The translations under genes and the position numbers were made by a program. From the NCBI GenBank assembly GCA_964541945.1, contig CAZISE010000018.1:5260-69259 (forward strand): 64,000 nucleotides of DNA, written 5' to 3'. Below the pieces are notes generated by a model. That model ran no database searches and was not told the DNA's origin. It saw only the letters and a list, made by a program, of their open reading frames with translations. Shown piece after piece: positions 9,956-44,911 of the stretch. Each line of letters starts with the position of its first letter. The stretch's first letter is position 1. The stretch is from an uncultured Verrucomicrobiota bacterium. GTDB lineage: Bacteria > Verrucomicrobiota > Verrucomicrobiia > Palsa-1439.

Positions 9956-10034
9956 GCGCCCCCATCATGCGCGGAGCGCGAGAAACTTCAAGCCGCTTCT
10001 TGCGTTTGCGTGGCAACCGGCTATGATGCCGCGC

Positions 10035-17304: not shown

Positions 17305-17378
17305 GCGGGTGTAGCATAGTGGTAATGCACCGGCTTCCCAAGCCGGCAAGGAGGGTTCGATTCCCTTCACCCGCTCCA
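17305..17378 (+). tRNA. tRNA-Gly (anticodon CCC)
   Basis: GCGGGTG acceptor stem pairs with CACCCGC. D-arm GCAT/ATGC. Anticodon stem CCGGC/GCCGG with loop TTCCCAA (anticodon CCC). T-arm GAGGG-TTCGATT-CCCTT. Discriminator U plus encoded CCA. 74 nt. Confidence 0.9.
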
Positions 17379-18996: not shown

Positions 18997-20429
18997 CAGC
19001 CTTTGATCACTCCAAGAGGTCGCAATCGCGCCACCTTCCGCGCAATCCCAGCTTGGTGGCAAACCTCCACCACATCCGACACATCCTTGTAGGCCCACGG
19101 CGCCTCTTCCAACGCTGTCCCCTTCCCGTGTGCCATCATTATCACTCCCGCCTCTTCCATCGTCCGACGCAGATCTGCCATCGAACCGTGTTTCATCGCT
19201 GCCGCACGGCTCATCATCCGCCCTGCGCCGTGGCAAACCGTTCCCCACGTCTGTTCCATCGCCGTCTGCGTGCCGACCAGCACAAACGAACACCGCCCCA
19301 TGTCGCCCGGCACCAACACCGGCTGGCCAATCCCGCGATACCGCGCCGGCAACGACTCGTGCCCCGGCGCAAACGCCCGCGTTGCTCCTTTGCGATGCAC
19401 ACAAAGCGTTCTGCCCTCGTGCCGCTCCAACTTCGCAATGTTGTGCGGCACGTCGTAAATCAATTCCATCCCCAATTCCCGCGGTGAAATCCGCAGCGCA
19501 TGCTCAAACGCCCGCTCCGCCTTCGCCATCAACACCTGCCGGTTCGCAAACGCATAGTTCGCCGCGCACCGCATCGCGGACAGATACTCGCGTCCTTCTG
19601 GCGAGTCCACCGGCGCGCACACCAACTGACGGTCAGGAAGGCTGATTCCATACTTCTGCGGTGTGTTCCGCATCATCTTCAAATAATCATCGCAAACCTG
19701 GTAGCCAAACCCGCGCGAGCCACAGTGGATCATCACTGTAATGCCACCTTTTGTCAGCCCCATCACTTCGGCCGCCAATTCATCGAACACCTCGTCCACC
19801 ACCTGCACTTCCAGAAAATGATTGCCACTGCCCACCGACCCCACCTGCCCCGCCCCTCGCTCCAGCGCCCGACTCGTAATCCCCGTCAACTCTGCCCCTT
19901 CCAAGCAACCGCGTTCCTCGATGAAATCGAGGTCTTCCGGTTTGCCGAACCCCCGTTTCACCGCCCACGCTGCCCCCTCCCGGATACACGCCTTCTCATC
20001 GGCAAACGACAAGTCCAAATCGCTCCCCTTCCCCAACCCGCACGGCACATCGCGAAACAACTGTGCCACCAGTTCTTTGACTCGCGGCACCACATCGGCC
20101 TGACGCAGATTCGTGCGCATCAGTCGTACCCCGCAATTGATGTCGTACCCAACGCCGCCCGGCGAAATCACGCCTCCGTCGGCAGGATCCGTGGCCGCGC
20201 AACCGCCGATGGGAAATCCATAACCCCAATGAATGTCCGGCATCGCCAATGAATATTTCTGGATACCCGGCAAAAACGCCACGTTCGCCACCTGCTCCAG
20301 CGCATTCTCGTCCACCGCATGACGCAACATCTCCTCCGTGGCGTAAATCCGACCCGGCACCCGCATCCCGCTTTTGTATGTCACGGGCACCTCCCACAAC
20401 CAGTCATGGATTTTTTGAAGCTCTCTCAC
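18996..20429 (-). CDS. rtcB: RNA-splicing ligase RtcB
   Basis: Full-length RtcB hallmarks: DIHWGYGFPIGG, GYDINCGVR, GSGNHFLEVQ, HCGSRGFG, GTVCHGAGR, APWAYKD. Confidence 0.95.
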   Translation of the reverse strand: MRELQKIHDWLWEVPVTYKSGMRVPGRIYATEEMLRHAVDENALEQVANVAFLPGIQKYSLAMPDIHWGYGFPIGGCAATDPADGGVISPGGVGYDINCGVRLMRTNLRQADVVPRVKELVAQLFRDVPCGLGKGSDLDLSFADEKACIREGAAWAVKRGFGKPEDLDFIEERGCLEGAELTGITSRALERGAGQVGSVGSGNHFLEVQVVDEVFDELAAEVMGLTKGGITVMIHCGSRGFGYQVCDDYLKMMRNTPQKYGISLPDRQLVCAPVDSPEGREYLSAMRCAANYAFANRQVLMAKAERAFEHALRISPRELGMELIYDVPHNIAKLERHEGRTLCVHRKGATRAFAPGHESLPARYRGIGQPVLVPGDMGRCSFVLVGTQTAMEQTWGTVCHGAGRMMSRAAAMKHGSMADLRRTMEEAGVIMMAHGKGTALEEAPWAYKDVSDVVEVCHQAGIARKVARLRPLGVIKG

Positions 20430-20506: not shown

Positions 20507-23500
20507 CTACAACAGCGCCTCGCTACACACAATCCTTGGGACAGGATGCTCTTTGTCGGAAGCCCTCCGCCGATCCACCCAGTCGCGGAGGTTGTGCTGA
20601 TCGTAGAGCTTGGCGAGGGACTTGAGCAACGGCTGGCCGGTAACGCCGTTGCGGCGCAATAGATTCAATTCCTTGTTCACGGCACGGGTGACCGGACCAC
20701 GAAACGCTTTTTCGAGGACATTGATCATGGCCTTCTGATCTTCATCATCGGTCGCGGCGAACAGGACGCGCAGTTCGCGCAGGACATAGTTCTGGCCGTG
20801 GCTCAGCGACAATGTGTGCTGACGCTCAGCTTGCCGGTGTTTGACTTCCTCGGCGAAGATCCGTTGCGCGCGCATCACGGCGGCGTTGTAATCTTTCGGC
20901 AGCGGCAGGGCTTTGGTTTCCGGGACGCACTTGATGAGGCCGAGAATCTTCGGGATATCCTTCGAGACAACGTTGCCGGCTTCATCCAGCAGGAACAATT
21001 GCTGGTAGCCTTTTTGGTCCGGCTGGTTCGGGTAGGTGGCTTCGCAGAAAACGAACTGGCCTTTGTGTGTGGACAACTTGCCGGTGCGGATACCGTCGCG
21101 CAGGTCGGCGATGCGCTCGTATTCGGCGGGGTTCTCTTTGCGAAGTTGCCGGAGAATTTCCTCGGCTTCGTTGAGGTCGAGGAACTCCTCTTCCGTCTCG
21201 TCCTCGAACAGGCTCAACTGGCCGCCGTTTTTCTTCTCGTAGATGGCGTACATCGCGTCTTCGTTGAGCCGCTCGGTGCGGTCAAGTATCTCGGAATCCT
21301 CGCCGATGGTGTCGTGGATTTCCTGAATCCGGTTGTGGAGTTTCTGCTGGAGATTGAGGTTTTTCTCGATGCCGGTTTCCGGGAGGAAGTTGAAGCCATA
21401 GACGACATCGTGATCGCTGCCGATGCGGTCAATGCGGCCAAACCGCTGGATGAGCCTTACCGGATTCCAGTGCAGGTCGTAGTTGATGATATTGTCGCAA
21501 TCCTGCAGGTTCAAGCCTTCGGCTAGCACATCCGTCGCCACCACCGTCATCAACTCCGCTTCGCCGGCCGGGCGTTGATACTGCGGATTGGCTTTCGGCG
21601 CAAACCGGCCAACGACGCGCATCTTGCTTTTGTCGCCGCTGAAGATCACGTCAATGTCGTCGCGTTTGCCACCGGGATTGAGGTTCTCGTACAAATACCG
21701 GGCGGTGTCGGCGTATTGCGTGAAAATCAATCGCTTGCGGTCTTTGAGGGGCGGTTTGCTCAGATATTCCTTCAACTTCTGCAACTTCGCATCCTGTTCA
21801 GGCGTGATCGGCTCAACCAGTTGCAGGATCTTCTTCAGCAGTTTCACGTCATGCGCGATGGCAGCCTTTAGCTTCGGCAAGTCGAAATCGGCAATGTCGT
21901 ACCGGCCCGATACCTTCCGCAGTGCGTCCATCAAATCCTGTTCTTCGTCCTGGTTCGGCTCGTATAGGATCGCCTGCGCATCCTCGCCGGCCGGGACAAC
22001 CCCTTCGTCCAATGCTTTCAGGAATCGTTCGTGAACGACGAGCAGACGGCGGACGGTTTCCTTGAAGGCGAACACCGATGACTCAAACCGTTTGAACAGC
22101 AGAATGCGAATCAGCCCACGCAATGTCGCCCCCGCCCGTTGCAGGCTCGCGTACGGCTCGTGCTTTTGTTTCTCGGCAGGGACGTAGTTGTAAAGACCGT
22201 ACCGGGCATACGTAAGCTCTTCACCGGTTGGCTCGATGACCCGGCGGCGAAACCTACCGGGTTTTCCGAGGTAGCCGCGCAACTGCTGATACAGGCCCCG
22301 GTAGGTGTCCTCGATGCTGTATTCGATGGTCTCCAGCTCGCGTTTCGGGAAGAACTGATGCTTGCCGCCGACGATGACATAGGCGCGTTTCTTCCCGTCG
22401 AGGTAGTCCCGAAACCGCGACGGATCAATCGGTTGATTTGTCTCCGAATCAAACCCGTACCAGCGCAGGATGTGGTTGCGGGTGCGCCGAATCAGGATGT
22501 TTGCCAGCAAGTCCGGCAGCTTGCGCTCGCCCTTTTCGATCAGCTTGAAATAGTCCTTCAAATTCGGCGGATCCACCGGCAGGTCGGTCTTGTCGTCCTG
22601 ATGGAACAGTTTGATCTGGTGATAGACATCCCACGCGCTTTTGTTGCGCGGCGTGGCCGTCAGAAAACAGCACCGACGGCCCGTGCTCAGGAACGCCTCC
22701 ATCACCTTGTATCGCTGCGTGTCGGGATGCCGGAGATTATGGCTCTCGTCAATCAGCACAAAATCCCGGTCTTTGTAGAGCACATCCTCCAGCAGGCGGT
22801 TGACCGCCCCGGTGTCGTCCTCGCGCAACATGTCCATCGAAAGCACGCGAGCGTTGAGTTGATAGACCTCGTTGTATCGCTCCCACATCTCCGTCAACGG
22901 CGCCGGGCACACAATTAGCGACCGGGCATGATCTGTCCGCTCGAAATGTTTCACGATGGCCGCGCCGATGTAGCTCTTGCCCAACCCGACCACATCCGCC
23001 ACAAACGCCCCGCCGAAATCGCGGATCATCTGTACCGCCTGACGGACCGCCACCTTCTGGAAATCGGCCAGTCGCTTGGTGATCTCGTCGTCCCACAGAA
23101 TGTCTTTGTCGTCCTCGCCTTCGAGCCGGTCGCGCACCAGCGTGTAGAGCGTCTTCATGTACACGTCGTACGGGCGCACCGGCGCGACCGCCCACGACTG
23201 CTTCATCTCCTGCATCAACGCTTCGTCAAAATCCTGCGCTTCCTTCCAAAGCTCATCGAACCACTTCACCAACTCGGTGTGATTGTCGTTGCCCTGCACC
23301 AGCACGTTCAACTCGGTGTTGTGCGTTACGCCCGACAACGTAAGATTCGACGACCCGACAATAGCGATACCCTTCTCGTGCCGCTCGACCGGCTTACCGT
23401 CGCTGCCATAGACCTTGCCGTAATCGAAGATGTACGCCTTCGCGTGCAACCGGCCCTTCGTATAGACCTTCACCTTGAGCCGTTTCTGCTCGATCATCCG

Positions 23501-23875
23501 CACCAACGTTGTCACCACCGCCTGCGCCTCATCGGTCTGATCCATCAACTCGATGGCCGACCGGATGTTCTGGGCCGTTTCCCGCTGCATCTGTTTCTCG
23601 GCGTGACGTTTCGGATACGCCTCCGCCTCGCGCGCTTCCGCGACCAACTCCAACCGCCGGTACCCCTCCGCAATTTGCTCCAACGTCTCGCGGTTCGTCG
23701 TGTTGCCAATGAGCAACCGCAACTCCTTCAGCCCGGCCAGCCGCGACGCGATGCTCTCCAGCCCCGACAGAAAGAAATACCCCACCGCAAACCGCGCCGC
23801 TTCCGTGGACGACAGAATCCGGTTGATGTGATCCACCAGCTTCTCCTTGCGATTGTCGATTATGTCGTGCGCCAT
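20507..23875 (-). CDS. fused PLD-family nuclease (N-terminal single HKD) / SNF2-family SF2 helicase
   Basis: N-terminal HAKAYIFD...GSSNLT is the PLD HxK(x)4D(x)6GSxN motif. Motif I GLGKSYIGAAIV. Motif II VLIDESHNLR. Helicase-C domain ATDVLAEGLNLQDCDNIINYDLHWNPVRLIQRFGRIDRIG. Confidence 0.85.
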   Translation of the reverse strand: MAHDIIDNRKEKLVDHINRILSSTEAARFAVGYFFLSGLESIASRLAGLKELRLLIGNTTNRETLEQIAEGYRRLELVAEAREAEAYPKRHAEKQMQRETAQNIRSAIELMDQTDEAQAVVTTLVRMIEQKRLKVKVYTKGRLHAKAYIFDYGKVYGSDGKPVERHEKGIAIVGSSNLTLSGVTHNTELNVLVQGNDNHTELVKWFDELWKEAQDFDEALMQEMKQSWAVAPVRPYDVYMKTLYTLVRDRLEGEDDKDILWDDEITKRLADFQKVAVRQAVQMIRDFGGAFVADVVGLGKSYIGAAIVKHFERTDHARSLIVCPAPLTEMWERYNEVYQLNARVLSMDMLREDDTGAVNRLLEDVLYKDRDFVLIDESHNLRHPDTQRYKVMEAFLSTGRRCCFLTATPRNKSAWDVYHQIKLFHQDDKTDLPVDPPNLKDYFKLIEKGERKLPDLLANILIRRTRNHILRWYGFDSETNQPIDPSRFRDYLDGKKRAYVIVGGKHQFFPKRELETIEYSIEDTYRGLYQQLRGYLGKPGRFRRRVIEPTGEELTYARYGLYNYVPAEKQKHEPYASLQRAGATLRGLIRILLFKRFESSVFAFKETVRRLLVVHERFLKALDEGVVPAGEDAQAILYEPNQDEEQDLMDALRKVSGRYDIADFDLPKLKAAIAHDVKLLKKILQLVEPITPEQDAKLQKLKEYLSKPPLKDRKRLIFTQYADTARYLYENLNPGGKRDDIDVIFSGDKSKMRVVGRFAPKANPQYQRPAGEAELMTVVATDVLAEGLNLQDCDNIINYDLHWNPVRLIQRFGRIDRIGSDHDVVYGFNFLPETGIEKNLNLQQKLHNRIQEIHDTIGEDSEILDRTERLNEDAMYAIYEKKNGGQLSLFEDETEEEFLDLNEAEEILRQLRKENPAEYERIADLRDGIRTGKLSTHKGQFVFCEATYPNQPDQKGYQQLFLLDEAGNVVSKDIPKILGLIKCVPETKALPLPKDYNAAVMRAQRIFAEEVKHRQAERQHTLSLSHGQNYVLRELRVLFAATDDEDQKAMINVLEKAFRGPVTRAVNKELNLLRRNGVTGQPLLKSLAKLYDQHNLRDWVDRRRASDKEHPVPRIVCSEALL

Positions 23876-23881
23876 GTTGCC

Positions 23882-25033
23882 TCACGGAAACAATCCGTTC
23901 CTCCCATCCATGATTGCCGCCAGTGGGACGGCTTCCACCCGGTCGTGCATGGTGTACCGTTGCGAGCCGGGATAGATCACGGCGATTCGTTCCAGCGTCA
24001 AATCTTCCAAAGCAATTCGCATCGAAGGGGTCATCTTGGGCGCATCTACTCGCTTGCACTCCACGCCATACAACCGACCTTCTTTCTGCAACACCAGATC
24101 AATCTCCGCCCCTTGATGCGTCGCCCAAAAATAGGCCGCGTCCGGCGCGACCGCCTTTAACGTCTCCTCCACCACATAACCTTCCCACGACGCGCCGCAC
24201 TTCGGATGCCGCTCCAACTCCCCCGCGTCGCGGATGCCCAACAGGTGATGCAGCAACCCGGTATCGCGGAAATACACCTTGGGCGACTTCACCTGCCGTT
24301 TCTTCAAATTCGCATGCCAAGCCGGCAACTGCCGGACCATGAATAGGTCGTTGAGTAAATCCAAGTAACGCCGCGCCGTCGTCTCGCCAATGCCCAGCGA
24401 GCGGGCCGGTTCCGCCGCATTCCAAATCTGGCCGTGATAATGCGCCACCATGCTCCAGAACCGGTGCAACGTCAGCGCCGGTGCCGCAAACCCCAGTTGC
24501 GGCACATCACGCTCCAGAAACGTCATCACAAACTCCTGCCGCCACCGAAACGATGCCGCTTCATCCGCCGCCAAGAACGACAGTGGAAATCCGCCCCGCA
24601 ACCAATGCCGCTCCTGCGCCGGCAACCCGACTTCTTGCAAGCTAAACCCGCCCATCAAGACCCGTTCGATTCGCCCCGCGAGTGATTCCGACGACTGTCG
24701 CAACAGCGCTGGTGATGCGCTGCCAAGAATCAAAAACCGGGCTGGCAAGGGTTCACGGTCGGCCAGCACCCGCAACACCGGAAACAGTTCCGGTCGCCGT
24801 TGCACCTCATCAATCACCACGATATCCCGCAGATTTCCCAGCGCCGACATCGGCTCGTCCAAGCGCGCAATATGACGCGGGTCTTCCAAGTCGAAATAAT
24901 TGGCTAACTCGGCCGGTACAATCTGGCGGGCCAAGGTCGTCTTCCCGCACTGACGCGGCCCAAGCAGCACCACTATCCGGCTCCGTTTCAGAGCCGCCCG
25001 TACCTGCTCCAACAATTGCGTGCGAGGAATCAC
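23882..25033 (-). CDS. AAA-family ATPase with DUF4143 C-terminal domain
   Basis: Walker A VVLLGPRQCGKTTLA. Walker B IVVIDEVQ. C-terminal DUF4143-like region (YFRDTGLLHHLLG...WEGYVVEE). GTG start at 25033. Confidence 0.8.
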   Translation of the reverse strand: MIPRTQLLEQVRAALKRSRIVVLLGPRQCGKTTLARQIVPAELANYFDLEDPRHIARLDEPMSALGNLRDIVVIDEVQRRPELFPVLRVLADREPLPARFLILGSASPALLRQSSESLAGRIERVLMGGFSLQEVGLPAQERHWLRGGFPLSFLAADEAASFRWRQEFVMTFLERDVPQLGFAAPALTLHRFWSMVAHYHGQIWNAAEPARSLGIGETTARRYLDLLNDLFMVRQLPAWHANLKKRQVKSPKVYFRDTGLLHHLLGIRDAGELERHPKCGASWEGYVVEETLKAVAPDAAYFWATHQGAEIDLVLQKEGRLYGVECKRVDAPKMTPSMRIALEDLTLERIAVIYPGSQRYTMHDRVEAVPLAAIMDGRNGLFP

Positions 25034-25044
25034 GGGGAGAGCCT

Positions 25045-25074
25045 ACCATGAAAATCCGCCACAGCAAGGCGGAT
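25045..25074. terminator. perfect 10-bp inverted repeat with 7-nt loop (AAAATCCGCC-acagcaa-GGCGGATTTT), terminator-like in both orientations
   Basis: Seen directly in the sequence. Lies between the last methyltransferase-tail relic and the ATPase GTG start, inside a locally low-GC 220-bp spacer. Confidence 0.4.
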
Positions 25075-25252
25075 TTTCAGCCTCATGTTGCAACCTATTG
25101 CGGGAACGCATCCTACCATGCCACCTGCAGCCAAAAATTCCGCATTCACAGGTTATCCTTTGGATTTTTCATGGTAGCTTCGCATCTGCGTTCTTCACCT
25201 TCAGCCCTCAGTTTTTAGCCTTTCCCTTCCGCCATCTTGATTTCCTCCGGCG

Positions 25253-25516
25253 TCAGGCCGTAGAAGCGATAACCGAGCTGTGCGAGATGCCGTCGTGTGT
25301 GTGGCAAACGTGCTGGTCTATCTCACGCTCCGGCGCCGACGTGTTTACCGCCGGATCAGGACGCTTCGAGACAAGATCATGAACCATATTTCTTGACCGT
25401 TTTTTCGCGGACGACGGTTGCCGATTCGGCAATGGCATAGTCCATGGCACGAGGATTTTCCATCCGTTCGGAGGCGTCCAGGATTTCCATGCCGACGAGA
25501 TTGCCGTCTTTGTCAT
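25253..25516 (-). pseudogene. degenerate relic of a methyltransferase C-terminal tail (frameshifted copy of the ...ALEREIDGxVYALYGLTPEEIKIVEE motif)
   Basis: ORF contains RPDPAVNTSAPEREIDQHV, homologous to ANPAADTSALEREIDGLV of the other two copies. The rest of the motif (YGLTPEEIK) is present in the +1 frame. Confidence 0.45.
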
Positions 25517-25877
25517 AGTCGAGGATGACGCCCGGCTTGTCCTCGTCGCTTTCCTCGATTGGGGTGTTGCGGAACAGAATCCGCAGCACGTCCACTTCGG
25601 GGTCGTAGATTACTTTCATGGTTGTCTCCAATACTTGCTGATCTGGCTGGTCCGATATACGGTTGACCACCACCGCTGGCTCGACCGTATCATCCACAAT
25701 CGCCCGCACCAGCATGATTCTACCACCACCCACATCCACTTGCGACTGGTAAGCTTTCTTGGGCGGTCGTTCGGGCACAATCTGCTGGGGCTGCCGCAAC
25801 ACCTCGTCCACCACGTCGCGCGGGATGCGGCGCAACACCAATTCTGATTCGGCATGGCTGGAGTACCGGAATGTCAT
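25377..25877 (-). CDS. DUF4258-like / DUF2283-like toxin-antitoxin-type protein, the two domains fused in one reading frame
   Basis: N-terminal half (ESELVLRRIPRDVVDEVLRQPQQI) matches DUF4258. C-terminal half starting MKVIYDPEVDVLRILF...DYDKDGNLVGMEILDAS matches DUF2283. No stop codon between them. Lower GC than surrounding DNA. Confidence 0.55.
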   Translation of the reverse strand: MTFRYSSHAESELVLRRIPRDVVDEVLRQPQQIVPERPPKKAYQSQVDVGGGRIMLVRAIVDDTVEPAVVVNRISDQPDQQVLETTMKVIYDPEVDVLRILFRNTPIEESDEDKPGVILDYDKDGNLVGMEILDASERMENPRAMDYAIAESATVVREKTVKKYGS

Positions 25878-26143
25878 TTTCCCGCCCCTTCCTCCACAAT
25901 TTTGATTTCCTCCGGCGTCAGGCCGTAGAGGGCGTACACCATCCCGTCTATCTCCCGCTCCAACTTGGTCGCGCCGATGGCGATGCGGTCGTGACTGGCC
26001 TGGCTCAACAGGCTGTAGCAGATGTCTTGAACGAGCGGCGTGTTCATGATCTCGGTTGCACTCGGATTATCGGTGGCATGGTCTATTCGCTCATTTAGGC
26101 GGCAGATCATCTTTCGGGTTAAATGGAACTCCCCATCCCCCAA
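25874..26143 (-). pseudogene. relic 3' end of a gamma-class N6-adenine methyltransferase / type IIG gene (C-terminal tail only)
   Basis: 89-aa ORF ending ...IGATKLEREIDGMVYALYGLTPEEIKIVEEGAGK*. This is the conserved extreme C-terminal motif of PglX / type IIG enzymes. 65 bp are near-identical to the copy at 26786-26855. Confidence 0.5.
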
Positions 26144-26759
26144 GCGGTGAAGCGTAAAACTCGTCTTTTCGCCCGTTCGCGATCAACCACTTCACGAACT
26201 CTTTGCCCTTTTCAGTAATTCGCAACATCGGTGTAGCGTCTTTTGTAACCAACTCAATAAATCCTGTCCCATTCAGCTTCCGCAAGAACTCGTCACCCCG
26301 AAAGCCACCAGTAGCCCACCCCTTACCGCGTGTTCCATGTTGATACGTATGTCCAAACGGAACGTATGGAAATAGGGCATTCTTTTCCGCCATGAGAATC
26401 AGGTGTTGTTTGAAGGTGTTATCTATAATGTTGTCGATAAGTTGATACACTGCGGTGGTGTCTGTTGGATTGCTTGCAACTTTTGCTGCCTGCTGAACAA
26501 CAGGAGCCCCTTGGATGGCATCTACAAAATCCTTTGGTGAAATATTCCCGAAGTCCGATGGCGAGTAGAAGTGGTATGGCTTGTGCCAAAGGATGTAAAA
26601 AAATGCTGACGCAATGCCAATGGCGAACAGCATGACAAACACCGCGAGTGCGCCTTGAATCCATGAATCTGTCTTGGTGACAGCGTAACCCAAAACGGCT
26701 TCTGTAAAGGTCACGAATATCGAGATGATCCAAAGTGGGGATAACTTGCTGGGATGCAT
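26091..26759 (-). CDS. hypothetical membrane protein (2 N-terminal TM helices + soluble C-terminal domain), cassette gene
   Basis: ATG at 26759..26757 (MHPSKLSPLWIISIFVTF...), preceded by AGGTGA inside the preceding tail micro-ORF. About 45% GC versus >60% for flanking DNA. Confidence 0.45.
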   Translation of the reverse strand: MHPSKLSPLWIISIFVTFTEAVLGYAVTKTDSWIQGALAVFVMLFAIGIASAFFYILWHKPYHFYSPSDFGNISPKDFVDAIQGAPVVQQAAKVASNPTDTTAVYQLIDNIIDNTFKQHLILMAEKNALFPYVPFGHTYQHGTRGKGWATGGFRGDEFLRKLNGTGFIELVTKDATPMLRITEKGKEFVKWLIANGRKDEFYASPLGGWGVPFNPKDDLPPK

Positions 26760-26761
26760 AT

Positions 26762-26893
26762 TCACCTCTTCGCGCTTTCCTCGACGATTTTGATTTCCGC
26801 CGGCGTCAGGCCGTAGAGGGCGTACACCAACCCGTCTATCTCCCGCTCCAGCGCCGACGTGTCCGCCGCCGGGTTCGCCCGCTTCGCGCTCAT
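26762..26893 (-). pseudogene. 43-aa micro-ORF encoding only a methyltransferase C-terminal tail (MSAKRANPAADTSALEREIDGLVYALYGLTPAEIKIVEESAKR*)
   Basis: Read from the reverse complement of 26762-26893. Its ATG overlaps the stop of fragment 26890-27405 as ATGA. Third copy of the tail repeat. Confidence 0.45.
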
Positions 26894-27405
26894 TTCTGCC
26901 CGGCCTCCTTGATGATGCGGACTTCTTCTACCTTTCTCAGATCGGCGAGCATGGCAGGGGGCGGGCTTTTTTCGGCGGCGGCTTGCAACGCTTGCAACGC
27001 AGCCAGCTTTCCTGCCTGCGCCGCGCTTCGCTTGTCCGGCGCGGCAGGCAGGTGCTTCGTGGGGATTTTCGACAAGTCGGGCGGGGCGGGCTTCGCGGTG
27101 GCGTCAAACAGCGTCAGCCGCCGGGCGCGCAACTCGCCGGGGAAGAACAACTCATACACCAGCCCGTTCAGCCACCGCTCGAAATACGCCACCAGCAGCC
27201 CCACCGACTCCTTCGTCACGCCGGGCGTGTGCAGCCAGATCCACGCCGCCGCCAACCGCTCGCACCACATCCGCTGCGCCTGTGCCATTGCAGCCGCTTT
27301 CACGTTCGTGCTTCCGTGACGGCTTTCGCGGGGGAATCGGGATTTGTGTTGGATTGAGCCGCCGGCTCCACGAACGAAACCGACGGCAGGATGATCATCG
27401 GCCAC
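26890..27405 (-). pseudogene. diverged duplicate of the 3' ~400 bp of the PglX-like methyltransferase gene (C-terminal fragment, with a 17-aa insertion)
   Basis: ...WCERLAAAWIWLHTPGVTKESVGLLVAYFERWLNGLVYELFFPGELRARRLTLFDATAKPAPPDL...KVEEVRIIKEAGQK is colinear with the last ~130 aa of 28634-32551 (WCERLAEALIWLHSPG...KVEEVRIIEEAGQTRG). Nucleotide identity roughly 85-90%, with one indel block. Confidence 0.6.
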
Positions 27406-27752
27406 GGACCACGCGCCGTAATACCGGCAATCATTTCGCGAGCCGCCGCATACAGAAGGCTTGCTCCATTGACGCGCACCAACTGCTCGACTTTGTCTTT
27501 CGGAAACTTGTCGCTGACTGTGAACAATCCCACGAACTCACAGTTGCCGGAATATGCGGGCGGCTCTTTACCGGTCGTGGCGAACTCCACCCGAAGCGAC
27601 ACCATCCATTGCAGCGGATCATCTTTCTTCCGCTGAGTGCAGGTCGGCTTCACGTCCACCCGCAGTTCGCCCTTGTGTGTCGCGCCGGGGCTGGCGTCCA
27701 CATGGATATGCGAGACGAAATGCCGGTCAAGCCGCAAGGGCGAGGGCTTCAT
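27300..27752 (-). CDS. SecB-like chaperone of a toxin-antitoxin-chaperone (TAC) module
   Basis: LRVEFATTGKEPPAYSGNCEFVGLFTVSD...LLYAAAREMIAGITARGPWPMIILPSVSF aligns with E. coli SecB [25 protein letters not shown]...[33 protein letters not shown]. Confidence 0.65.
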   Translation of the reverse strand: MKPSPLRLDRHFVSHIHVDASPGATHKGELRVDVKPTCTQRKKDDPLQWMVSLRVEFATTGKEPPAYSGNCEFVGLFTVSDKFPKDKVEQLVRVNGASLLYAAAREMIAGITARGPWPMIILPSVSFVEPAAQSNTNPDSPAKAVTEART

Positions 27753-28170
27753 TGGTCGCCTCCGGTTTGGTGGTCACGGTGGTTGTCGCGGACGCGGGGA
27801 GTGTGCATTCTCGCCGCCAAGTCAACGGCTCGGCTTGGATTGCGGGCACTTCTTCCACCGCGTCCCAGACATCGAGCCACTGGGTCTTTGTGCCGATGGG
27901 CTGCAAATGAACGCGGACATCGGCGTTCAATGCGCGCGCAATCTTCACCATGGTTTCGAGGGTGAAGTTGGTGCTGCCACGCAGCACTTTCGTCACGTAC
28001 GCCGGGCTGGCATTCAGCCGTTTCGCCAGTTCCGCATTCGACACACCCTCCGCCTCCATCCGTGCGACGATCTCCTCGGTGAATTCGAGGATCACGCCTT
28101 CCACATAGTACGCCAAGCGTTTCCGGGCGGTCTCGAACAGTTGCTTGAACGTTTTTTTATTGCTGCTCAT
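27727..28170 (-). CDS. XRE-family HTH antitoxin with C-terminal extension (putative chaperone-addiction segment)
   Basis: Start MSSNKKTF (ATG 28170..28168, overlapping the toxin stop). HTH: VSNAELAKRLNASPAYVTKVLRG. About 50-aa C-terminal tail beyond the HTH fold, ending in a Thr/Ala-rich segment. Confidence 0.6.
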   Translation of the reverse strand: MSSNKKTFKQLFETARKRLAYYVEGVILEFTEEIVARMEAEGVSNAELAKRLNASPAYVTKVLRGSTNFTLETMVKIARALNADVRVHLQPIGTKTQWLDVWDAVEEVPAIQAEPLTWRRECTLPASATTTVTTKPEATNEALALAA

Positions 28171-28604
28171 AAGATTGTTTCCTCGATGACGATGACTTGT
28201 TGCGTCTGTCTTGCGATTTGGTACTTCTTTTTCCATTCTTCCGCGCGCTTGACTTCCCGACTTAGCCGTTTCTCCTGGCTCTTCGGGAAGCCATGCGTGC
28301 AGATGATCAACCGTCCCGCATCATAGAACCACAGCACGCGCACCCCACCGCGCGTCTTGAACTCAAACAAATCCTTTCCCACCGGCCGGCACTTCTCTTT
28401 GTTGCGCGGCGGCTCGTTGTCCGCCACAAACTCCAGCAACCGCACCAGCCGGGCATGCTCATCCGCATCGCTCGCCTCCAACTCGTTGAGGAAATCCTCC
28501 AGAGGCCGATTTGGCTCAACGTTTTCACCGACCACGGGCCGTTCTTCGAGCGCATAGATGGCATAGCGTTGTCCTCTGCACACCCTGTGTAGAACAACTC
28601 TCAT
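28167..28604 (-). CDS. RelE/ParE-superfamily toxin of the Gp49/HigB-like (DUF891) type
   Basis: KDLFEFKTRGGVRVLWFYDAGRLIICTHGFPKSQEK is the Gp49-like signature. Immediately followed by the XRE antitoxin and the SecB-like gene. Confidence 0.6.
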   Translation of the reverse strand: MRVVLHRVCRGQRYAIYALEERPVVGENVEPNRPLEDFLNELEASDADEHARLVRLLEFVADNEPPRNKEKCRPVGKDLFEFKTRGGVRVLWFYDAGRLIICTHGFPKSQEKRLSREVKRAEEWKKKYQIARQTQQVIVIEETIL

Positions 28605-28611
28605 GCTATCT

Positions 28612-28641
28612 TTAACCTATAGGTTAACATCCGTCAACCCC
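28612..28641 (-). promoter_or_regulatory. putative promoter/operator of the TAC operon: perfect 16-bp palindrome TTAACCTATAGGTTAA (28612-28627) between a TTGACG -35-like hexamer and the toxin ATG
   Basis: Seen directly. Minus strand reads GGGTTGACGGATG-TTAACCTATAGGTTAA-AGATAGC-ATG. The palindrome is 7 nt upstream of the toxin start and typical of HTH-antitoxin autoregulation sites. Confidence 0.5.
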
Positions 28642-31600
28642 TTGTTTGCCCCGCCTCCTCGATGATCCGCACTTCTTCCACCTTGCTCAAATCCGCGAGC
28701 ATGGCGGGGAGCGGGCTTTTGTCGGCGGCGGCTTGCAACTCTTGCAACGCGGCCAGCTTTTGTTTTTCTGGGATTTTCGCGAGGTCGGGCGGGGCAAGCT
28801 TCGCGGTGGCGTCAAACAGCGCCAGCCGCCGGGCGCGCAACTCGCCGGGGAAGAACAACTCATACACCAGCCCGTTCAGCCACCGCTCGAAATACGCCAC
28901 CAGCAAGCCGGTCTCCGTGGGTCGGGCGCGACCGCCAGGAGAATGCAGCCAGATCAACGCCTCCGCCAACCGCTCGCACCACCCACGCTGCTCCACAGTC
29001 GCAGAGGGGATGGGGATTTGCTCGACATACTGAGATATAAACCGGAGGTAGCCACCTCGAATCATGTTGCTTGTCTGCCGATAGAACCAAAGAACCGTGC
29101 TTGAATTAAGCACCGGGACAACCCACTCTGGCGCTTGAACCATGTAACCCGTGTTTCCGAGAAAATGCTTCCCAATGTCCCAAGCAAACTGTGTTGTCTC
29201 GGCAATGTCCGGAAACACAACTTTCCCGGGGATTTCGAAACTCTCCCAGTAGGCGGTGTTGTCCTGAATCTCATACCACTCGTAGTTACCGGGTTTTCTT
29301 CCTCCTGGGATGCCGGGAATGAGTTGCTTCTTGAATTGCTTTAAGTGCTCGTGAATTGCCGGATACTTCCAAATATCGCAGCCACGCCGCGTGAAGATTA
29401 GCCACAGGTCTTGCGAATCACACCGCCACCGCTTCACATCGCGGCCACGCAGAAAGGGCTTGAGCAACTCAGCGGATGATTTGTGTTCAGCAATCAGTCG
29501 GTCGCGTGTTTGGCGGTCCACAACAAAGGCTTCGTTCCTACCGGTCGTCACTCCGCGATAGAACCTCTCTCCGCAATACTCGCCGAGCGGCTTACCGGCT
29601 TTTCGCATTCGTTCGAGGAGGCGGAGGCTTACCGGGCTTTCGAGACGCCAGCCGTCGGGTTTGAGGTCGCGTTGGGCGATGGCGTGGGCTTCGGCATCGA
29701 ACAGGTCCGGGAAGTCCAGCAGCACTTTGCCGGGATTCCAAGTGTGGACGCGGACTTGCCAGTCGGCGGGCGGCAGGTTGGTGGCGTGGAGGATGCCGGT
29801 GGGGCTTTGCGGGTCGGGCAGGCGTTCGACGTGCCGGGTTTTCTCGGCAACGAGGATGCAGGGATAGGCGATGGAGGTGAACACGGGGGCGTCGCCGAAA
29901 TCGAGGATGGCGCGGGGATGGGTAGCGTAGAAGAGGTAGGCGCGCAGCCGTTCGCCGTAGGCGGCCCGCATGTATTTGTTGGAAGTAACGAAGCTGAGGA
30001 CGCCGCCGAGTTTGAGGAGTTGGAAGCTGCGCTCGAAGAAATAGACGTAGAGGTCGGCGGTGCCGGTGTAGCATTCGTATTGGTCGCGGAGGGCGTCCTT
30101 GAGCGGACGCGGTTTGCCGTCGCTGCCGGTGACGGTGACGTTTTTGAGTTCTTCCTGCCGTACGTAGGGCGGGTTGCCGACGACGATGTCGAACACTGCG
30201 CCGCGGGCGTCCTCCGGTAGGGACGGACCGCCGGGCCGTCCGTCCGTGGCATCACTCGGCGCGCCCGGCGGTCGCGCCCTACCACCGGTCAGGCCGAACA
30301 TCCAGGCGGGATCGAAGAAGGGGGCGGCTTTGTTGGTGTCGTAGGGATTCCACGCGGCGAGGCGTTGGGCGTCGTAGGGGGAACATTCGCCGCTGTCGGT
30401 GAGGGCGGCGGCGAGTTGGTCGCAGAGTTGCTTGTCGCGGGCGCGGAGGGCTTTTTTGTCTTTGTAGCGGCGGGCGGTGAAGTAGTCGTGTCGGACTTGT
30501 TGGAGTTCGCGTTCGAGTTTGCGGACGGTGTCCGAGCCGAGGAGGAGTTGGCCGCGCTGGAGGCCGAGGAGGGTGTTGGCGGCGACGATCTTGGTTTCGA
30601 GGTTGGGCAGTGGGAGGATGCCGTAGTTGGGTTGTTTGGGGTCAATGGACTGGTCGCAGATCAGCGAGATGAAGAAGCGGAGCTTGGCGATCTGGCAGGC
30701 GATGGGCTGGATGTCCACGCCGTAGAGGCAGTTTTCGATGAGGTAGAGTTTGCGGCCGTAGTCGTCGTTGTCGCGGGCGAAGGCGCGTTCGATGGCTTGC
30801 CGGGCTTCGTCGCGGGCGGGGGCGCTCTCGAAGGTGTCGAGCGCGGCTTCTTGCCGGCGACGCCAGCCTTTGTTTTCGGGGTCGAGTTTGCGGAGGACGT
30901 GGACGAGTTTCTGGAGCATCCCCATCGGGAAGGCCCCGGAGCCGCAGGCCGGGTCGAGGACTTTGAGGTGGTCAATGGCGTCAATGAGTCGCTCGACTTC
31001 TTTCGGGGTGAAATCGTGCCCGGTATCTTCCCAGGAGAGCAGCCGGCGGAGGCGGGGGTCGTTGGGTTTATTGAGCGCCTTTTCCAGATGCGCCAGCAAC
31101 GCCTGATCCACCATCCAGTCCACTACGACGCGCGGGGTGTAGAACGAGCCGGTCGCCTTGCGGGCGATGGTGCCGGTCTCCGGGTTGTAGGCGGCCAGCA
31201 GGTTCTCGAAGACGTGGCCGAGCAGTTCGGGGTCGAGGGCGACTTCCTGTTCGAGCGGGGTGTTTTCGGTGAGGGTAAAGTTGTACCGGCTCAGGATCGA
31301 GAGCAGCGGGCGCACCGTCTCGCGTCGCCTACCGGCATCGCCATACGCGCCGGAAAGATCAGCCACTTGATCCGCGCCAAAGAACAGGAAGTTCGGCAGC
31401 TTGGGCTGTTTCTTCGGGTCGTTGGAGAAGCCGTCAATGCGGATTTCGTCGGTGAAGTTGGATTTGCCGCGCTGCACCCGGTCGTCGAGGCACTCGAACA
31501 GGCCGCCGTTGAGGAACGGCACTTCGCGCAACAGCTTGGCGAGGGCGTCGGGATCACGGAGGAGGCGTTGGTTTCGCCAGAGCGTGTGGATCATGTGGTC

Positions 31601-32551
31601 GTTGCTGCGCTGGCCGTCGCCTTCCTCAATGAAGCGGCGGTTGGGCGGCTCGCCCGGCTTGTCCATTTCGGTGTTGAGCGTGGCGAAGAAGAGGTTTTGC
31701 AGGATGGCCGGGTAGTAGGTGCAAGCGTCAGGCGAGGCATCCTTGAGCAACCCGGCAATACCGCGCGGTTCGAACAGCACGTCCGGCAACAAGCCTTCGC
31801 CCGTGACCGGGTTGCGTTTCTCGCGCAAGAACCAGCAGAAGATCAGCCGCGTGAGTAAGCGAATAAGGAACAGAGCGCGGTCTTCCTTTGTTTGGACATC
31901 TTTGGGGAAGACGACCTGACGGCAATCCCGCGCCCAGAAATACCAGTTGGCGATTTCGGTGTAGAAATCCTTGGTGACCTTCTCGACATCGAACGCTTCG
32001 TCGTGCCGTTGCTGAATCTCCAGCGCCGAGAGGCCGAACATGTCGCGCTCAAACGACGCGAGGTCGAGCAAAGCGAGTCGTTCGCTGGCCGTCCGTTGCC
32101 CCTCCCCGGCATGGACGGTGATCCGGCGGAACAGGCGGCGTTTCTCTGGCGTGTCGGCGTATTTGACGTTGAGGAAATGCCAGCGGTCTTGCGCTTTGTT
32201 GGAGAACACGAACAGCGCATACGGATGCTCGCGCAACAGGCGTGTCACCACCGGCCGCTCCGCGCCGAGCAGCAGCCGGTCGGATGCCAGCCGACCATAG
32301 ATCACATGGAAATCGCCATTCTCGCCCCCACCGGCAAACAGCACCGGATCCTCCGCCAACGCCTGCGCTGCCGACTCCGTCCACCCTCGCCGCGACAACG
32401 GCTGATTCACCCGCTGATAATTCAGCTCACGCCAAAACAACTCTTTCAGCGGCTCAATCCCGCGCAGTTCCTTGAGCAACTCCAACACCTGCTGTTGTCG
32501 TTCCGGTTTCGCCATGACGCGCAGTGTAACCGGGCGGGATGTGTGGGACAA
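28634..32551 (-). CDS. PglX/MmeI-like gamma-class N6-adenine DNA methyltransferase (1305 aa; type IIG/IIL or BREX/DISARM-type methyltransferase)
   Basis: SAM-binding motif I VLDPACGSGAFPMG. Motif IV VVGNPPYV. N-terminal region with the hhhRLhFhhFLxEK pattern (FLIRLLTRLIFCWFLREKR) shared by MmeI/PglX N-termini. C-terminal target-recognition-like region. Starts at TTG 32551 or ATG 32515. Confidence 0.85.
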   Translation of the reverse strand: MSHTSRPVTLRVMAKPERQQQVLELLKELRGIEPLKELFWRELNYQRVNQPLSRRGWTESAAQALAEDPVLFAGGGENGDFHVIYGRLASDRLLLGAERPVVTRLLREHPYALFVFSNKAQDRWHFLNVKYADTPEKRRLFRRITVHAGEGQRTASERLALLDLASFERDMFGLSALEIQQRHDEAFDVEKVTKDFYTEIANWYFWARDCRQVVFPKDVQTKEDRALFLIRLLTRLIFCWFLREKRNPVTGEGLLPDVLFEPRGIAGLLKDASPDACTYYPAILQNLFFATLNTEMDKPGEPPNRRFIEEGDGQRSNDHMIHTLWRNQRLLRDPDALAKLLREVPFLNGGLFECLDDRVQRGKSNFTDEIRIDGFSNDPKKQPKLPNFLFFGADQVADLSGAYGDAGRRRETVRPLLSILSRYNFTLTENTPLEQEVALDPELLGHVFENLLAAYNPETGTIARKATGSFYTPRVVVDWMVDQALLAHLEKALNKPNDPRLRRLLSWEDTGHDFTPKEVERLIDAIDHLKVLDPACGSGAFPMGMLQKLVHVLRKLDPENKGWRRRQEAALDTFESAPARDEARQAIERAFARDNDDYGRKLYLIENCLYGVDIQPIACQIAKLRFFISLICDQSIDPKQPNYGILPLPNLETKIVAANTLLGLQRGQLLLGSDTVRKLERELQQVRHDYFTARRYKDKKALRARDKQLCDQLAAALTDSGECSPYDAQRLAAWNPYDTNKAAPFFDPAWMFGLTGGRARPPGAPSDATDGRPGGPSLPEDARGAVFDIVVGNPPYVRQEELKNVTVTGSDGKPRPLKDALRDQYECYTGTADLYVYFFERSFQLLKLGGVLSFVTSNKYMRAAYGERLRAYLFYATHPRAILDFGDAPVFTSIAYPCILVAEKTRHVERLPDPQSPTGILHATNLPPADWQVRVHTWNPGKVLLDFPDLFDAEAHAIAQRDLKPDGWRLESPVSLRLLERMRKAGKPLGEYCGERFYRGVTTGRNEAFVVDRQTRDRLIAEHKSSAELLKPFLRGRDVKRWRCDSQDLWLIFTRRGCDIWKYPAIHEHLKQFKKQLIPGIPGGRKPGNYEWYEIQDNTAYWESFEIPGKVVFPDIAETTQFAWDIGKHFLGNTGYMVQAPEWVVPVLNSSTVLWFYRQTSNMIRGGYLRFISQYVEQIPIPSATVEQRGWCERLAEALIWLHSPGGRARPTETGLLVAYFERWLNGLVYELFFPGELRARRLALFDATAKLAPPDLAKIPEKQKLAALQELQAAADKSPLPAMLADLSKVEEVRIIEEAGQTRG

Positions 32552-44794: not shown

Positions 44795-44911
44795 GCGCCT
44801 TGCCTTTCTTCCTATAACACATCCTCTCCTAGTTCGTATGCACATCACAGGTAACAACAAACGTGATGCTACTTTGCACAGGCTTCCAAGTAAATAAAAA
44901 ATCCATTCCTT

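Follow-up and report, generated by a model that had tools for sequence, protein, structure and literature searches.

A widespread methyltransferase and PLD-SNF2 gene pair as a candidate two-gene restriction-modification-like module, with swappable cassettes embedded between its genes

Organization of the locus

The DNA considered here is a 64-kb window (the whole stretch of 64,000 nucleotides that was analysed) from the contig CAZISE010000018.1 of an uncultured Verrucomicrobiota bacterium. A first-pass annotation had placed on one strand an adenine methyltransferase gene (28634-32551), a gene fusing a PLD nuclease to a SNF2 helicase (20507-23875) and a DUF4143 ATPase gene; the ORFs proved to be exactly as described, all on the minus strand. 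The features of the locus, following the direction of reading, are:

28634..32551, minus strand: core gene 1, encoding an N6-adenine DNA methyltransferase of gamma class, Eco57I/MmeI family, 1305 aa (Pfam)
28647..28994, minus strand: 'long tail' 1, the last ~118 methyltransferase codons (aa 1188-1305), left repeat around the TAC cassette (repeat families D1, D3 and D4; alignment)
27300..28604, minus strand: tripartite Gp49/HigB-like, HTH_3 and SecB-like cassette (Pfam; NCBIfam SecB/HigA)
28167-28604, minus strand: Gp49/HigB-like toxin of this cassette (Pfam Gp49, 2.8e-13)
27727-28236, minus strand: HTH_3 antitoxin of this cassette (Pfam HTH_3, 1.1e-9)
27300-27752, minus strand: SecB-like chaperone of this cassette (Pfam SecB, 1.1e-9)
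26897..27280, minus strand: 'long tail' 2, right repeat around the TAC cassette, a copy of the 3' end of the methyltransferase gene that is not functional (repeats, alignment)
26771..26886, minus strand: R_a, remnant of a canonical methyltransferase C-terminus, ending in ...ADTSALEREIDGLVYALYGLTPAEIKIVEESAKR and the stop codon (repeats)
26091..26765, minus strand: 224-aa protein, apparently membrane-spanning, its sequence judged by eye (ORF)
25883..25962, minus strand: R_b, second remnant of a canonical tail, sharing 93% identity with R_a (repeats)
25377..25877, minus strand: 166-aa single ORF joining DUF4258 (toxin-like) and DUF2283 (antitoxin-like) (Pfam)
25218..25368, minus strand: R_c, third canonical tail remnant, degraded, with ~60% identity and a ~35-nt insertion (repeats)
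23882..25033, minus strand: 383-aa AAA_14/DUF4143 ATPase (Pfam; PADLOC PDC-S01)
20507..23875, minus strand: core gene 2, encoding a fusion of PLD (HKD) nuclease and SNF2-type SF2 ATPase, 1122 aa (Pfam, PADLOC)

The two core proteins

The 1305-aa protein matches the Pfam families Eco57I (2e-33), TaqI_C (9e-11), N6_Mtase and, weakly, MmeI_Mtase. Its conserved N-terminal domain (aa 1-205) is followed by a helical spacer, by motifs I (D533PACGSGAF, aa 533-541) and IV (N793PPY, aa 793-796), and then by a TaqI_C-type region of variable sequence for target recognition (aa ~900-1180); the C-terminal tail is of the 'long' kind. The position of motif I before NPPY, the C-terminal TaqI_C region and the Eco57I match assign it to the gamma class. 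Among homologues the catalytic motifs are invariant, and the recognition region is the least conserved stretch of the protein. No D...(D/E)xK set was found among the invariant columns of the N-domain in the homologue alignment and, as far as sequence goes, the chain lacks a nuclease of its own, the acidic/lysine signature being missing from this domain.

The second core protein carries PLDc_2 (aa 112-210) followed by SNF2-rel_dom, ResIII and Helicase_C domains (Pfam). It has a single intact HKD motif (H144-x-K146...D151, G174SSN), which is invariant across homologues together with Walker A (G297LGKS), D376ESH and Q810RFGRIDRIG. Its top PADLOC match is C3a139 'HKD+Snf2' (1e-80), a family already recorded (PMC6546367), and its relatives form 1763 clusters at 50% identity (E<=1e-30). 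Weak RapA matches were also seen, no modified-base reader domain was recognised by Pfam, and the structure model of the full-length protein is poor (pLDDT 46.8). The fusion protein is predicted to be a restriction effector.

Pairing of the two genes across genomes

The comparison covered 81 family loci, and the upstream count was made on the 35 related genomic loci whose flank reaches 9.9 kb or more. In 30 of these 35 loci PLD-SNF2 is preceded on its own strand by a methyltransferase homologue; none was found within 10 kb in the five others, and the homologue is never seen downstream (0/53 loci). The intergenic gap ranges from -22 to 8535 nt across family loci, and compact two-gene operons occur at L034, L074, L008, L012, L061 and L043. 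No third conserved gene, large or small, was found across the 81 loci, nor was a conserved large third gene seen beside the pair on the annotated plasmids that also carry it (Haloferax pBNX82-1, Synechocystis pSYSX and Pelobacter pPRO1).

A reciprocal scan from the methyltransferase N-terminus led from the same N-domain to a downstream PLD-SNF2 (57-78% identity), and retrieved 47 loci with a different methyltransferase N-terminus, in which a PLD-SNF2 at 24-31% identity lies immediately upstream, mostly overlapping. This distant branch, in which the order is reversed (helicase, then methyltransferase), includes Synechocystis slr6050. The pSYSX methyltransferase tentatively fits slr6050, the putative M.Ssp6803IV, by its size, plasmid and domain; M.Ssp6803IV has been tentatively assigned to the site GAm6AGGC, and segregation failed in the slr6050 knockout (PMC6105098), as an active restriction partner would predict.

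PLD-SNF2 is much better conserved than the methyltransferase (for example 85% versus 52%, or 82% versus 52%), and the same pattern of conserved effector and variable specificity has been reported for MtsD/MtsC of MANTIS (10.64898/2026.09.23.753747). A conserved helicase, a variable recognition region, and the different methyltransferase allele of the orthologous locus L166 (see below) are what would be expected of a generic effector served by a specificity subunit. Identity of ~75% spans Verrucomicrobiota, Acidobacteriota, Chloroflexota, Desulfobacterota and Cyanobacteria, which indicates horizontal spread. Taken together, these patterns support the methyltransferase and PLD-SNF2 as a genuine functional pair and the core of a two-gene module, and the minimal methylation-gated helicase-nuclease system suggested by the first-pass annotation, which had also proposed this co-occurrence check, is consistent with both the usual arrangement and the reverse-order branch.

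Could the methyltransferase nevertheless be a self-sufficient Type IIG/IIL enzyme, with PLD-SNF2 merely co-located, for instance as a SauUSI-like modification-dependent enzyme? PLD-helicase enzymes such as SauUSI do act alone (10.64898/2026.09.23.753747), and the best PADLOC matches of the methyltransferase are Type IIG fused enzymes (REase_MTase_IIG, 1.8e-81), so that a residual N-domain nuclease of unusual chemistry is conceivable. However, the N-domain is devoid of the invariant nuclease signature, the helicase has no recognisable reader of modified bases, and the two genes stay together over identities from 97% to as low as 24%, in either order and often with overlapping stop and start codons, all of which makes this explanation unlikely.

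Embedded cassettes and methyltransferase tail remnants

The genes lying between the core pair are diverse. The ATPase gene stops 7 nt short of the start codon of the helicase gene, and its product matches PDLC04790 (PDC-S01, a PADLOC single-gene candidate; 1.6e-91), Pfam DUF4143 (1.1e-47) and AAA_14 (5e-25). Instead of the three toxin-antitoxin-type cassettes initially described, the gap holds one tripartite toxin-antitoxin-chaperone (TAC) set of three consecutive overlapping ORFs, the DUF4258-DUF2283 ORF, and the 224-aa protein (26091-26765), which has no match in Pfam, NCBIfam or PADLOC. In the relatives, the embedded genes are cassettes with a known or candidate role in defence: PDC-M05A/B, PDC-M41A, HEC-01A, PDC-S01, an OLD-like ATPase, Schlafen and HEAT_CxxC_PD-DEXK. 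This recalls the defence-gene embedding of Payne et al., likewise an intergenic hotspot, with the same families HEC-01, PDC-M05, PDC-M41 and PDC-S01. The DUF4143 ATPase and the toxin-antitoxin-type genes (HigB-HigA-SecB and DUF4258-DUF2283) vary between loci and are missing from most of the family, and they are not components of the system. Together with the 224-aa protein they form independent accessory cassettes, probably co-transcribed with the core genes.

A remnant of the 3' end of the methyltransferase gene stands before every embedded cassette. 'Long tail' 2 shares 84-90% nucleotide and 67% amino acid identity with this 3' end, with a 42-nt indel. The stop codon of R_a and the start of the cassette gene that follows overlap, as do the stop of R_b and the start of its next cassette (ATGA), and R_c lies just upstream of the DUF4143 cassette. 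The orthologous locus L166 shares a helicase of 97% identity with the window and differs from it in methyltransferase allele and cassettes; the HigB-HigA-SecB cassette and the DUF4143 ATPase are 96.5% and 95% identical in nucleotides between the two loci, respectively, and at L166 a 23S_rRNA_IVP gene stands between the ATPase and the helicase. The breakpoints of homology between the window and L166 coincide with the tail remnants, homology resuming for example at window position 25222, at R_c. The intergenic gap appears, as a new finding, to have taken in interchangeable accessory defence cassettes, with a leftover methyltransferase 3' end marking each one, and no description of cassette boundaries marked in this way was found in the literature searched.

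The position of the ATPase could also be read as that of a required loader or regulator in a three-part system, analogous to HmaC or MtsA: besides its proximity to the helicase, it is again the last gene before the helicase at L032, L047 and L057 (with a fragment at L072), and an AAA+ ATPase is needed for methylation in MANTIS (10.64898/2026.09.23.753747). This is very unlikely, as the ATPase (cluster C11) occurs in only 5 of the 81 family loci (the window and these four) and is absent from ~94% of them, compact two-gene operons included. It also matches a stand-alone candidate, is separated from the helicase at L166, and follows a tail remnant as the other cassettes do.

Relation to named defence systems

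The domains of both large proteins are as first described. None of the curated DISARM, BREX and MANTIS models of NCBIfam claims either protein, and both fall far below every DISARM and BREX cut-off. PADLOC yielded no match in ORFs flanking the locus, nor in the remaining large ORFs of the window. The nearest named system is MANTIS, and the closest architecture is that of a split Type ISP enzyme.

In MANTIS (Gao_RL, Gao_29 or BREX-related type-2; MtsABCD), the effector likewise joins an N-terminal single-HKD PLD to an SF2 helicase-like ATPase, a likeness at the level of architecture drawn from the description of MtsD, and an N6-adenine methyltransferase likewise carries specificity, the effector being conserved and the recognition region varying. 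PLD-SNF2 scores 161 bits against the cut-off of 1100 of the NCBIfam model 'phospholipD_antiphage', which may not represent MtsD. MANTIS however includes a DUF499 AAA+ ATPase (MtsA) and a DUF3780 protein (MtsB), both missing here: DUF499 was found neither by Pfam in the 10 ORFs that make up the locus and flanking DNA nor by PADLOC in distant large ORFs, and DUF3780 was not found by Pfam among the small ORFs between the core genes. Moreover, MtsC is an alpha-class enzyme with DPPY and a central recognition domain (10.64898/2026.09.23.753747), in contrast to the 1305-aa, gamma-class, Eco57I/MmeI-like methyltransferase of the window, with NPPY and a C-terminal recognition region.

Type ISP enzymes (LlaGI, LlaBIII) resemble the module in arranging their activities from nuclease through SF2 translocase and gamma N6A methylase to recognition domain, a layout with which the reverse-order branch is collinear. 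Their one-strand methylation of asymmetric sites and two-complex cleavage are both predicted for the module. They are single polypeptides with an Mrr/PD-(D/E)xK nuclease and a coupler, whereas the module has two genes, a PLD nuclease and an SNF2-type motor, and the resemblance is one of domain logic and general family knowledge rather than of sequence match. Type IIL/IIG enzymes (MmeI, DrdV, Eco57I, BpuSI) also join a gamma N6A methylase to a recognition domain in one chain, but the catalytic residues of their N-terminal PD-(D/E)xK nuclease are not conserved in the window methyltransferase, which has a separate helicase-nuclease partner.

Class 1 DISARM (DrmA, DrmB, DrmC, DrmD, DrmMI) draws on the same domains, a PLD, an SNF2 helicase and a large adenine methylase of the Eco57I family, and partial PADLOC matches were obtained to DrmD (8e-38), DrmMI (3.5e-27, covering only aa 461-627 of the methyltransferase, for which Type IIG models score far better) and DrmC (1.8e-9). 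DrmC and DrmD are nevertheless separate proteins, the PLD and SNF2 of the window being one polypeptide. The NCBIfam scores (DISARM_DrmD 158.7 bits against 610, DrmD_b 104.8 against 950, DrmC_I 20.8 against 133) contradict the DISARM-like membership proposed at first. So does the absence of DrmA and DrmB, itself correctly noted at that stage: DrmB (DUF1998) has no PADLOC match in the window, and DrmA (YprA-type helicase) none outside a partial match in PLD-SNF2. Four NCBIfam BREX PglX models (BREX-1, -2 and -6) match at 45-72 bits against cut-offs of 400-900, and PADLOC found neither PglZ nor BrxC/PglY in the window. Hma (BREX-related type-1) follows a similar helicase-nuclease and methylase logic, but its helicase bears a C-terminal PD-(D/E)xK nuclease and a TUDOR domain, its methylase is different and it uses a DUF499 ATPase, while the window has an N-terminal PLD and no DUF499; the PADLOC HmaA match (1e-25) is limited to the helicase core (aa 669-838).

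Partial PADLOC matches to DrmD, DrmMI, BrxHII and PglX, and the many gene fragments in the locus, might suggest a decayed, inactive remnant of a larger system (class 1 DISARM, BREX type 3 or MANTIS). That is highly improbable, since neither large ORF is broken and the catalytic motifs of both are invariant, the curated cut-offs are all missed by a wide margin, and dozens of phyla carry the same pair with no DrmA/B, BrxC, PglZ or DUF499.

A proposed mechanism

We consider, with a probability of roughly 0.7, that the core is a two-gene, ATP-dependent, restriction-modification-like module whose function would be defence. The methyltransferase would read a short asymmetric site through its variable C-terminal recognition region and methylate one adenine, marking host DNA, as suggested by its family and by the putative relative M.Ssp6803IV. 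Lacking a nuclease, it may recruit or license PLD-SNF2 at unmethylated sites, the candidate contact surfaces being its conserved N-terminal domain and the clade-specific C-terminus of the helicase; such contact is suggested by the co-variation of these clade-specific ends. The SNF2 motor would then translocate along DNA using ATP. With one HKD per chain, two chains would have to pair into one PLD active site, so that cleavage probably needs two complexes that converge or dimerise, a requirement shared with Type III, Type ISP and MANTIS; this would explain how methylation of one strand can protect the host.

We propose that the module may be functionally a Type ISP enzyme split in two genes, with PLD replacing Mrr or, equivalently, a MANTIS-type effector working without DUF499/DUF3780 loaders. 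That a gamma-class methyltransferase works alone with its effector is an assumption here, because methylation by MANTIS depends on an AAA+ loader. It is scarcely probable that the pair serves some purpose other than defence, for example DNA repair or, with SNF2 as a remodeller, epigenetic regulation: SNF2 proteins such as RapA do act in transcription and orphan methylases may regulate genes, but the helicase is fused to a PLD nuclease, the phyletic distribution is patchy and indicates horizontal transfer, known or candidate defence cassettes lie between the core genes, and the slr6050 knockout did not segregate.

The architecture, which the first-pass annotation had placed outside the named systems, is not wholly unrecorded: no curated DISARM, BREX or MANTIS model claims either protein, but C3a139, the listing by Milman et al. 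of a 'Type II RM CDS next to a PLD+SNF CDS' (PMC9881135) and the MtsD-type effector were already on record. The two-gene module is widespread, and still unnamed.

Gene content of the locus

The ORF table agrees with every coordinate of the first-pass annotation and places three genes on the minus strand: the methylase (a gamma-class N6-adenine methyltransferase), the helicase (a PLD-SNF2 fusion) and a DUF4143 ATPase. The features of the locus and its surroundings are as follows.

28634-32551 (-), methylase, 1305 aa; Pfam Eco57I, TaqI_C, N6_Mtase, weak MmeI_Mtase
27300-28604 (-), toxin-antitoxin-chaperone cassette: Gp49/HigB-like, HTH_3, SecB-like; 96.5% nucleotide identity in the orthologous locus L166
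25377-25877, DUF4258 (toxin-like) and DUF2283 (antitoxin-like), 166 aa, one ORF instead of two genes
23882-25033 (-), DUF4143 ATPase, 383 aa; Pfam AAA_14 and DUF4143
20507-23875 (-), helicase, 1122 aa; Pfam PLDc_2 (aa 112-210), SNF2-rel_dom, ResIII, Helicase_C
18996-20429, RtcB RNA ligase gene, same strand as the helicase and 78 nt downstream of it
17305-17378 (+), tRNA-Gly(CCC) gene, about 3 kb beyond the helicase and RtcB

The small ORFs between the large genes had been counted as three toxin-antitoxin cassettes, a number that Pfam revises to one tripartite toxin-antitoxin-chaperone set, one fused toxin-antitoxin-like ORF and one unknown, a 224-aa product without a match. The tripartite set resembles mycobacterial TAC systems, and the DUF4258-DUF2283 ORF may represent either a fusion or a pair in decay.

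On both sides the locus is flanked by ordinary genes, coding upstream for a GH42-like protein, N_methyl/DUF1559 proteins and a GH57 branching enzyme, and downstream for RtcB and then a Wzz-type tyrosine kinase; no PADLOC model matched the flanking genes or ten other large ORFs of the window. RtcB is kept as chromosomal context in L166, where an ECF sigma and anti-sigma pair comes next, and not across the helicase family at large, so that it is probably a neighbour rather than a part of the system. Between positions 15000 and 18000, the stretch that also holds the tRNA gene, G+C falls to 0.51-0.52; no integrase was seen. Promoter and terminator counts between positions 20000 and 33000 were no higher than in shuffled sequence, and are thus uninformative on operon structure.

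A two-gene pair conserved across phyla

The helicase family comprises 1763 clusters at 50% identity (E<=1e-30), with about 75% identity across Verrucomicrobiota, Acidobacteriota, Chloroflexota, Desulfobacterota, Nitrospirota and Cyanobacteria. Clustering of ORFs over related loci left the methylase and the helicase as the only conserved families, the intervening genes being variable. The co-occurrence of the PLD-SNF2 fusion with such a methylase across genomes, which the first-pass annotation had put forward for checking, is borne out: of 80 genomic loci, 35 have 9.9 kb or more of upstream flank, and in 30 of these a same-strand homologue of the window methylase lies upstream of the helicase, while a homologue lies downstream in 0 of 53. 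The gap between the two genes ranges from -22 nt to 8.5 kb, and in six loci the two form a compact operon by themselves.

When metagenomes were scanned reciprocally, with the methylase N-terminus as the query, two arrangements emerged. Where the N-domain is shared, a helicase 57-78% identical lies downstream of the methylase. In a reverse-order branch of 47 loci (within L092-L163), a PLD-SNF2 protein 24-31% identical is encoded directly upstream of the methylase, the genes usually overlapping, and alignment of these methylases to that of the window begins only at about residue 112-185. The pair also stands without a third partner on annotated plasmids (Haloferax pBNX82-1, Synechocystis pSYSX, Pelobacter pPRO1), the reverse-order examples being L082 (pSYSX 43696-51129) and L083 (pPRO1). 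In pSYSX, the PLD-SNF2 gene and the methylase gene are separated by a gene for a VapC-type toxin and a small ORF without annotation, which probably form a VapBC pair. In size (1100 aa), plasmid and domain (Eco57I), the methylase of pSYSX fits slr6050, the tentative M.Ssp6803IV, an enzyme that methylates GAm6AGGC on one strand and whose knockout never segregated (PMC6105098). Another gene considered as the pSYSX relative, slr6095, proved to be the M subunit of a Type I system and was discarded in favour of slr6050.

Relatives on viral contigs number only two, and there is therefore no sign of a phage-borne system. Milman et al. mention in passing a 'Type II RM CDS with an adjacent PLD + SNF CDS' (PMC9881135), and a literature search for a paper naming or testing the methylase/PLD-SNF2 pair found none: this is a large family, glimpsed before, and neither named nor tested in the searchable literature.

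Features of the two core proteins

The sequences of both proteins retain their motifs intact: a single HKD per chain, Walker A, DESH and motif VI in the helicase, and the cofactor and catalytic motifs in the methylase. The helicase is much more conserved than the methylase (e.g. 85% vs 52%), in which conservation is lowest in the recognition region and highest in the N-terminal 205 residues. No D...(D/E)xK set is conserved in this N-domain, whose model (pLDDT 78) matched DrdV, MmeI, HsdM, PglX and BpuSI weakly, as well as, again weakly, a few restriction-endonuclease-like folds. The AlphaFold model of the full-length helicase is poor (pLDDT 46.8) because the alignment is too shallow, with all rows at least 74% identical. 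Candidate contact surfaces are the methylase N-domain and the C-terminal part of the helicase (aa ~880-1122), since both are restricted to the same clade. Directly before NPPY, the methylase has a Gly/Pro/Ala-rich insertion, GGRARPPGAPSDATDGRPGGPSLPEDARG (aa ~755-785, positions 30190-30290), that is not kept in homologues and is probably disordered.

Relation to named defence systems

The best PADLOC match of the helicase is C3a139 'HKD+Snf2' (1e-80), a cluster defined by its proximity to type III CRISPR loci (PMC6546367), and its matches to DrmD, BrxHII, HmaA and 'PLD_Helicase' are confined to the helicase core. Both proteins score well under all curated NCBIfam cut-offs: 72 bits for BREX-2 PglX (cut-off 400), 161 for phospholipD_antiphage (cut-off 1100), 159 for DrmD (cut-off 610) and 21 for DrmC (cut-off 133). 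The first-pass observation is confirmed and its interpretation holds in part: the methylase and helicase form a conserved pair, and membership in class-1 DISARM, given the DrmD and DrmC scores, falls. A PDB sequence search returned generic SNF2 and methylase matches only, MtsD and SauUSI not being matched.

BREX, a first guess from gene sizes, was dismissed, as the upstream ORFs are the GH42-like, N_methyl/DUF1559 and GH57 genes, without PADLOC matches. Hma (BREX-related type-1) combines a SNF2 helicase bearing a C-terminal PD-(D/E)xK nuclease with a methylase and a DUF499 ATPase (PMC8565338, PMC11232893, PMC12839542); it was rejected since the nuclease of the window helicase is of another type and at the other end, and DUF499 is missing. 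The closest comparison, made by description, is MANTIS (BREX-related type-2, Gao_RL), composed of the DUF499 ATPase MtsA, the DUF3780 protein MtsB, the alpha-class DPPY methylase MtsC and, as effector, the PLD + SF2 helicase MtsD. Only the effector architecture is common to both: DUF499 and DUF3780 proteins are absent from the window, and its methylase, unlike MtsC, is gamma-class, because motif I (aa 533-541) precedes NPPY (aa 793-796) and the TaqI_C region is C-terminal. MANTIS membership is therefore ruled out on MtsA, MtsB and MtsC. By membership, the locus is not DISARM, BREX, Hma or MANTIS, and current tools would break the family up, labelling one gene 'RM type IIG' and the other a DrmD-like orphan.

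Cassettes bounded by methylase gene ends

Every cassette embedded in the window is bounded by direct repeats derived from methylase 3' coding ends (tails).

28647-28994 (-), long tail 1, last ~118 codons of the methylase gene
26897-27280 (-), long tail 2, a non-functional copy, 84-90% nucleotide identity to long tail 1
26771-26886 (-), R_a, direct repeat, canonical methylase C-terminus; stop overlaps next start
25883-25962 (-), R_b, direct repeat, canonical methylase C-terminus; stop overlaps next start
25218-25368 (-), R_c, direct repeat, canonical methylase C-terminus

The long tails flank the toxin-antitoxin-chaperone cassette on both sides. R_a, R_b and R_c, each directly upstream of a cassette, encode the canonical C-terminus of the methylase family (...ADTSALEREIDxxVYxLYGLTxEEIKIVE), with stop/start overlaps GTGA and ATGA at R_a and R_b.

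Across 81 loci (the 80 genomic loci and the window), a tail profile gave 42 matches, which without exception share the coding strand and precede the helicase; 15 of them show the same 4-nt stop/start overlap. Additional copies occur in about eleven loci, and those outside methylase C-termini all lie between methylase and helicase, except for one upstream of the methylase start in L008. In six loci (L007, L008, L009, L069, L072, L077) the intact helicase is preceded by short remnants of its own 5' end (aa ~3-70); a search of the window found none. An inversion shufflon was ruled out, the copies being all direct, on the coding strand and devoid of recognition-domain sequence.

The embedded genes of relatives include PDC-M05A/B (MNT + HEPN), PDC-M41A with an SPL-like protein, HEC-01A, OLD-like ABC ATPases, Schlafen/AlbA_2, HEAT_CxxC_PD-DEXK and PDC-S01 (10.1101/2024.01.29.577857). 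An OLD/ABC-type ATPase gene directly follows a 'long tail'-type methylase or tail copy in L022, L037 and L166 (4293-6950), which suggests that this tail variant and this cassette travel together; in L040 the same gene stands behind a canonical tail. The DUF4143 ATPase is treated as a cassette as well. Its constant position, last before the helicase, would fit a helper serving a subset of systems, a role we consider very improbable for a gene found in just five of the 81 loci.

The strongest evidence for tail-bounded exchange comes from sequence comparison with L166/L167 (positions 1-10000 against window 23880-32551), whose helicase is 97% identical (97.6% over 13.4 kb of helicase and downstream chromosome) and whose chromosomal neighbours are the same. 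The methylase there is a different allele (core 72% nucleotide identity, recognition region unalignable, tail canonical), and the set of cassettes differs as well, comprising toxin-antitoxin-chaperone genes, an ABC ATPase of 885 aa, a Schlafen-like protein, DUF4143 and 23S_rRNA_IVP. Homology breaks at 28713 (in long tail 1), 27040 (in long tail 2) and 25222 (the edge of R_c), and L166 tail fragments sit at matching module borders. Given the repeats at cassette borders and these breakpoints in or at tails, the region may be read as an array of 'tail + cassette' modules, swapped through recombination at conserved gene ends. The tails may be recombination substrates, or mere passengers holding cassette expression signals. 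This tail-delimited array is the most original element of the findings.

Proposed mechanism

The methylase would recognise an asymmetric site and methylate one strand, and at an unmodified site would license the PLD-SNF2 motor. With a single HKD motif per chain, one PLD site would take two paired chains, as in BfiI, SauUSI and MtsD, so that cleavage probably requires two complexes, and hemimethylated host DNA would then be spared, as in Type III, Type ISP and MANTIS. As the Type ISP order (nuclease, motor, methylase, recognition domain) is collinear with the reverse-order branch, a 'split Type ISP with a PLD nuclease' appears to be the best functional analogy, and the pair would work most like a split Type ISP or a loader-free MANTIS-type restriction system; defence activity, methylation motif and protein contact are predicted.

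The boldest reading, which has two parts, is given a probability of about 0.4. In its first part, the pair would be a distinct, widespread and unnamed class of ATP-dependent restriction system, split Type ISP-like with a PLD nuclease, in which a gamma-class methylase by itself licenses a MANTIS-type effector, no AAA+ loaders being involved. In its second, the methylase 3' end, and in some loci the helicase 5' end, would serve as portable homology through which 'tail + cassette' modules, each cassette translationally coupled to a tail remnant, are captured, stacked and swapped by recombination, defence islands thus growing within the operon in an integron-like, integrase-free manner.

Significance

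If two genes suffice for methylation and restriction, the pair would be among the simplest ATP-dependent, one-strand-methylating restriction systems, in a helicase family that is large and present in many phyla. It would then offer a natural comparison for MANTIS, BREX and DISARM, bearing on why those need AAA+ loaders and on how a PLD-helicase effector locates unmodified sites. The tail-remnant borders suggest a concrete mechanism, open to testing, by which defence genes come to lie inside other defence operons, something so far unexplained, and provide a simple sequence signature for discovering cassettes, namely the tail motif followed by an ATGA overlap.
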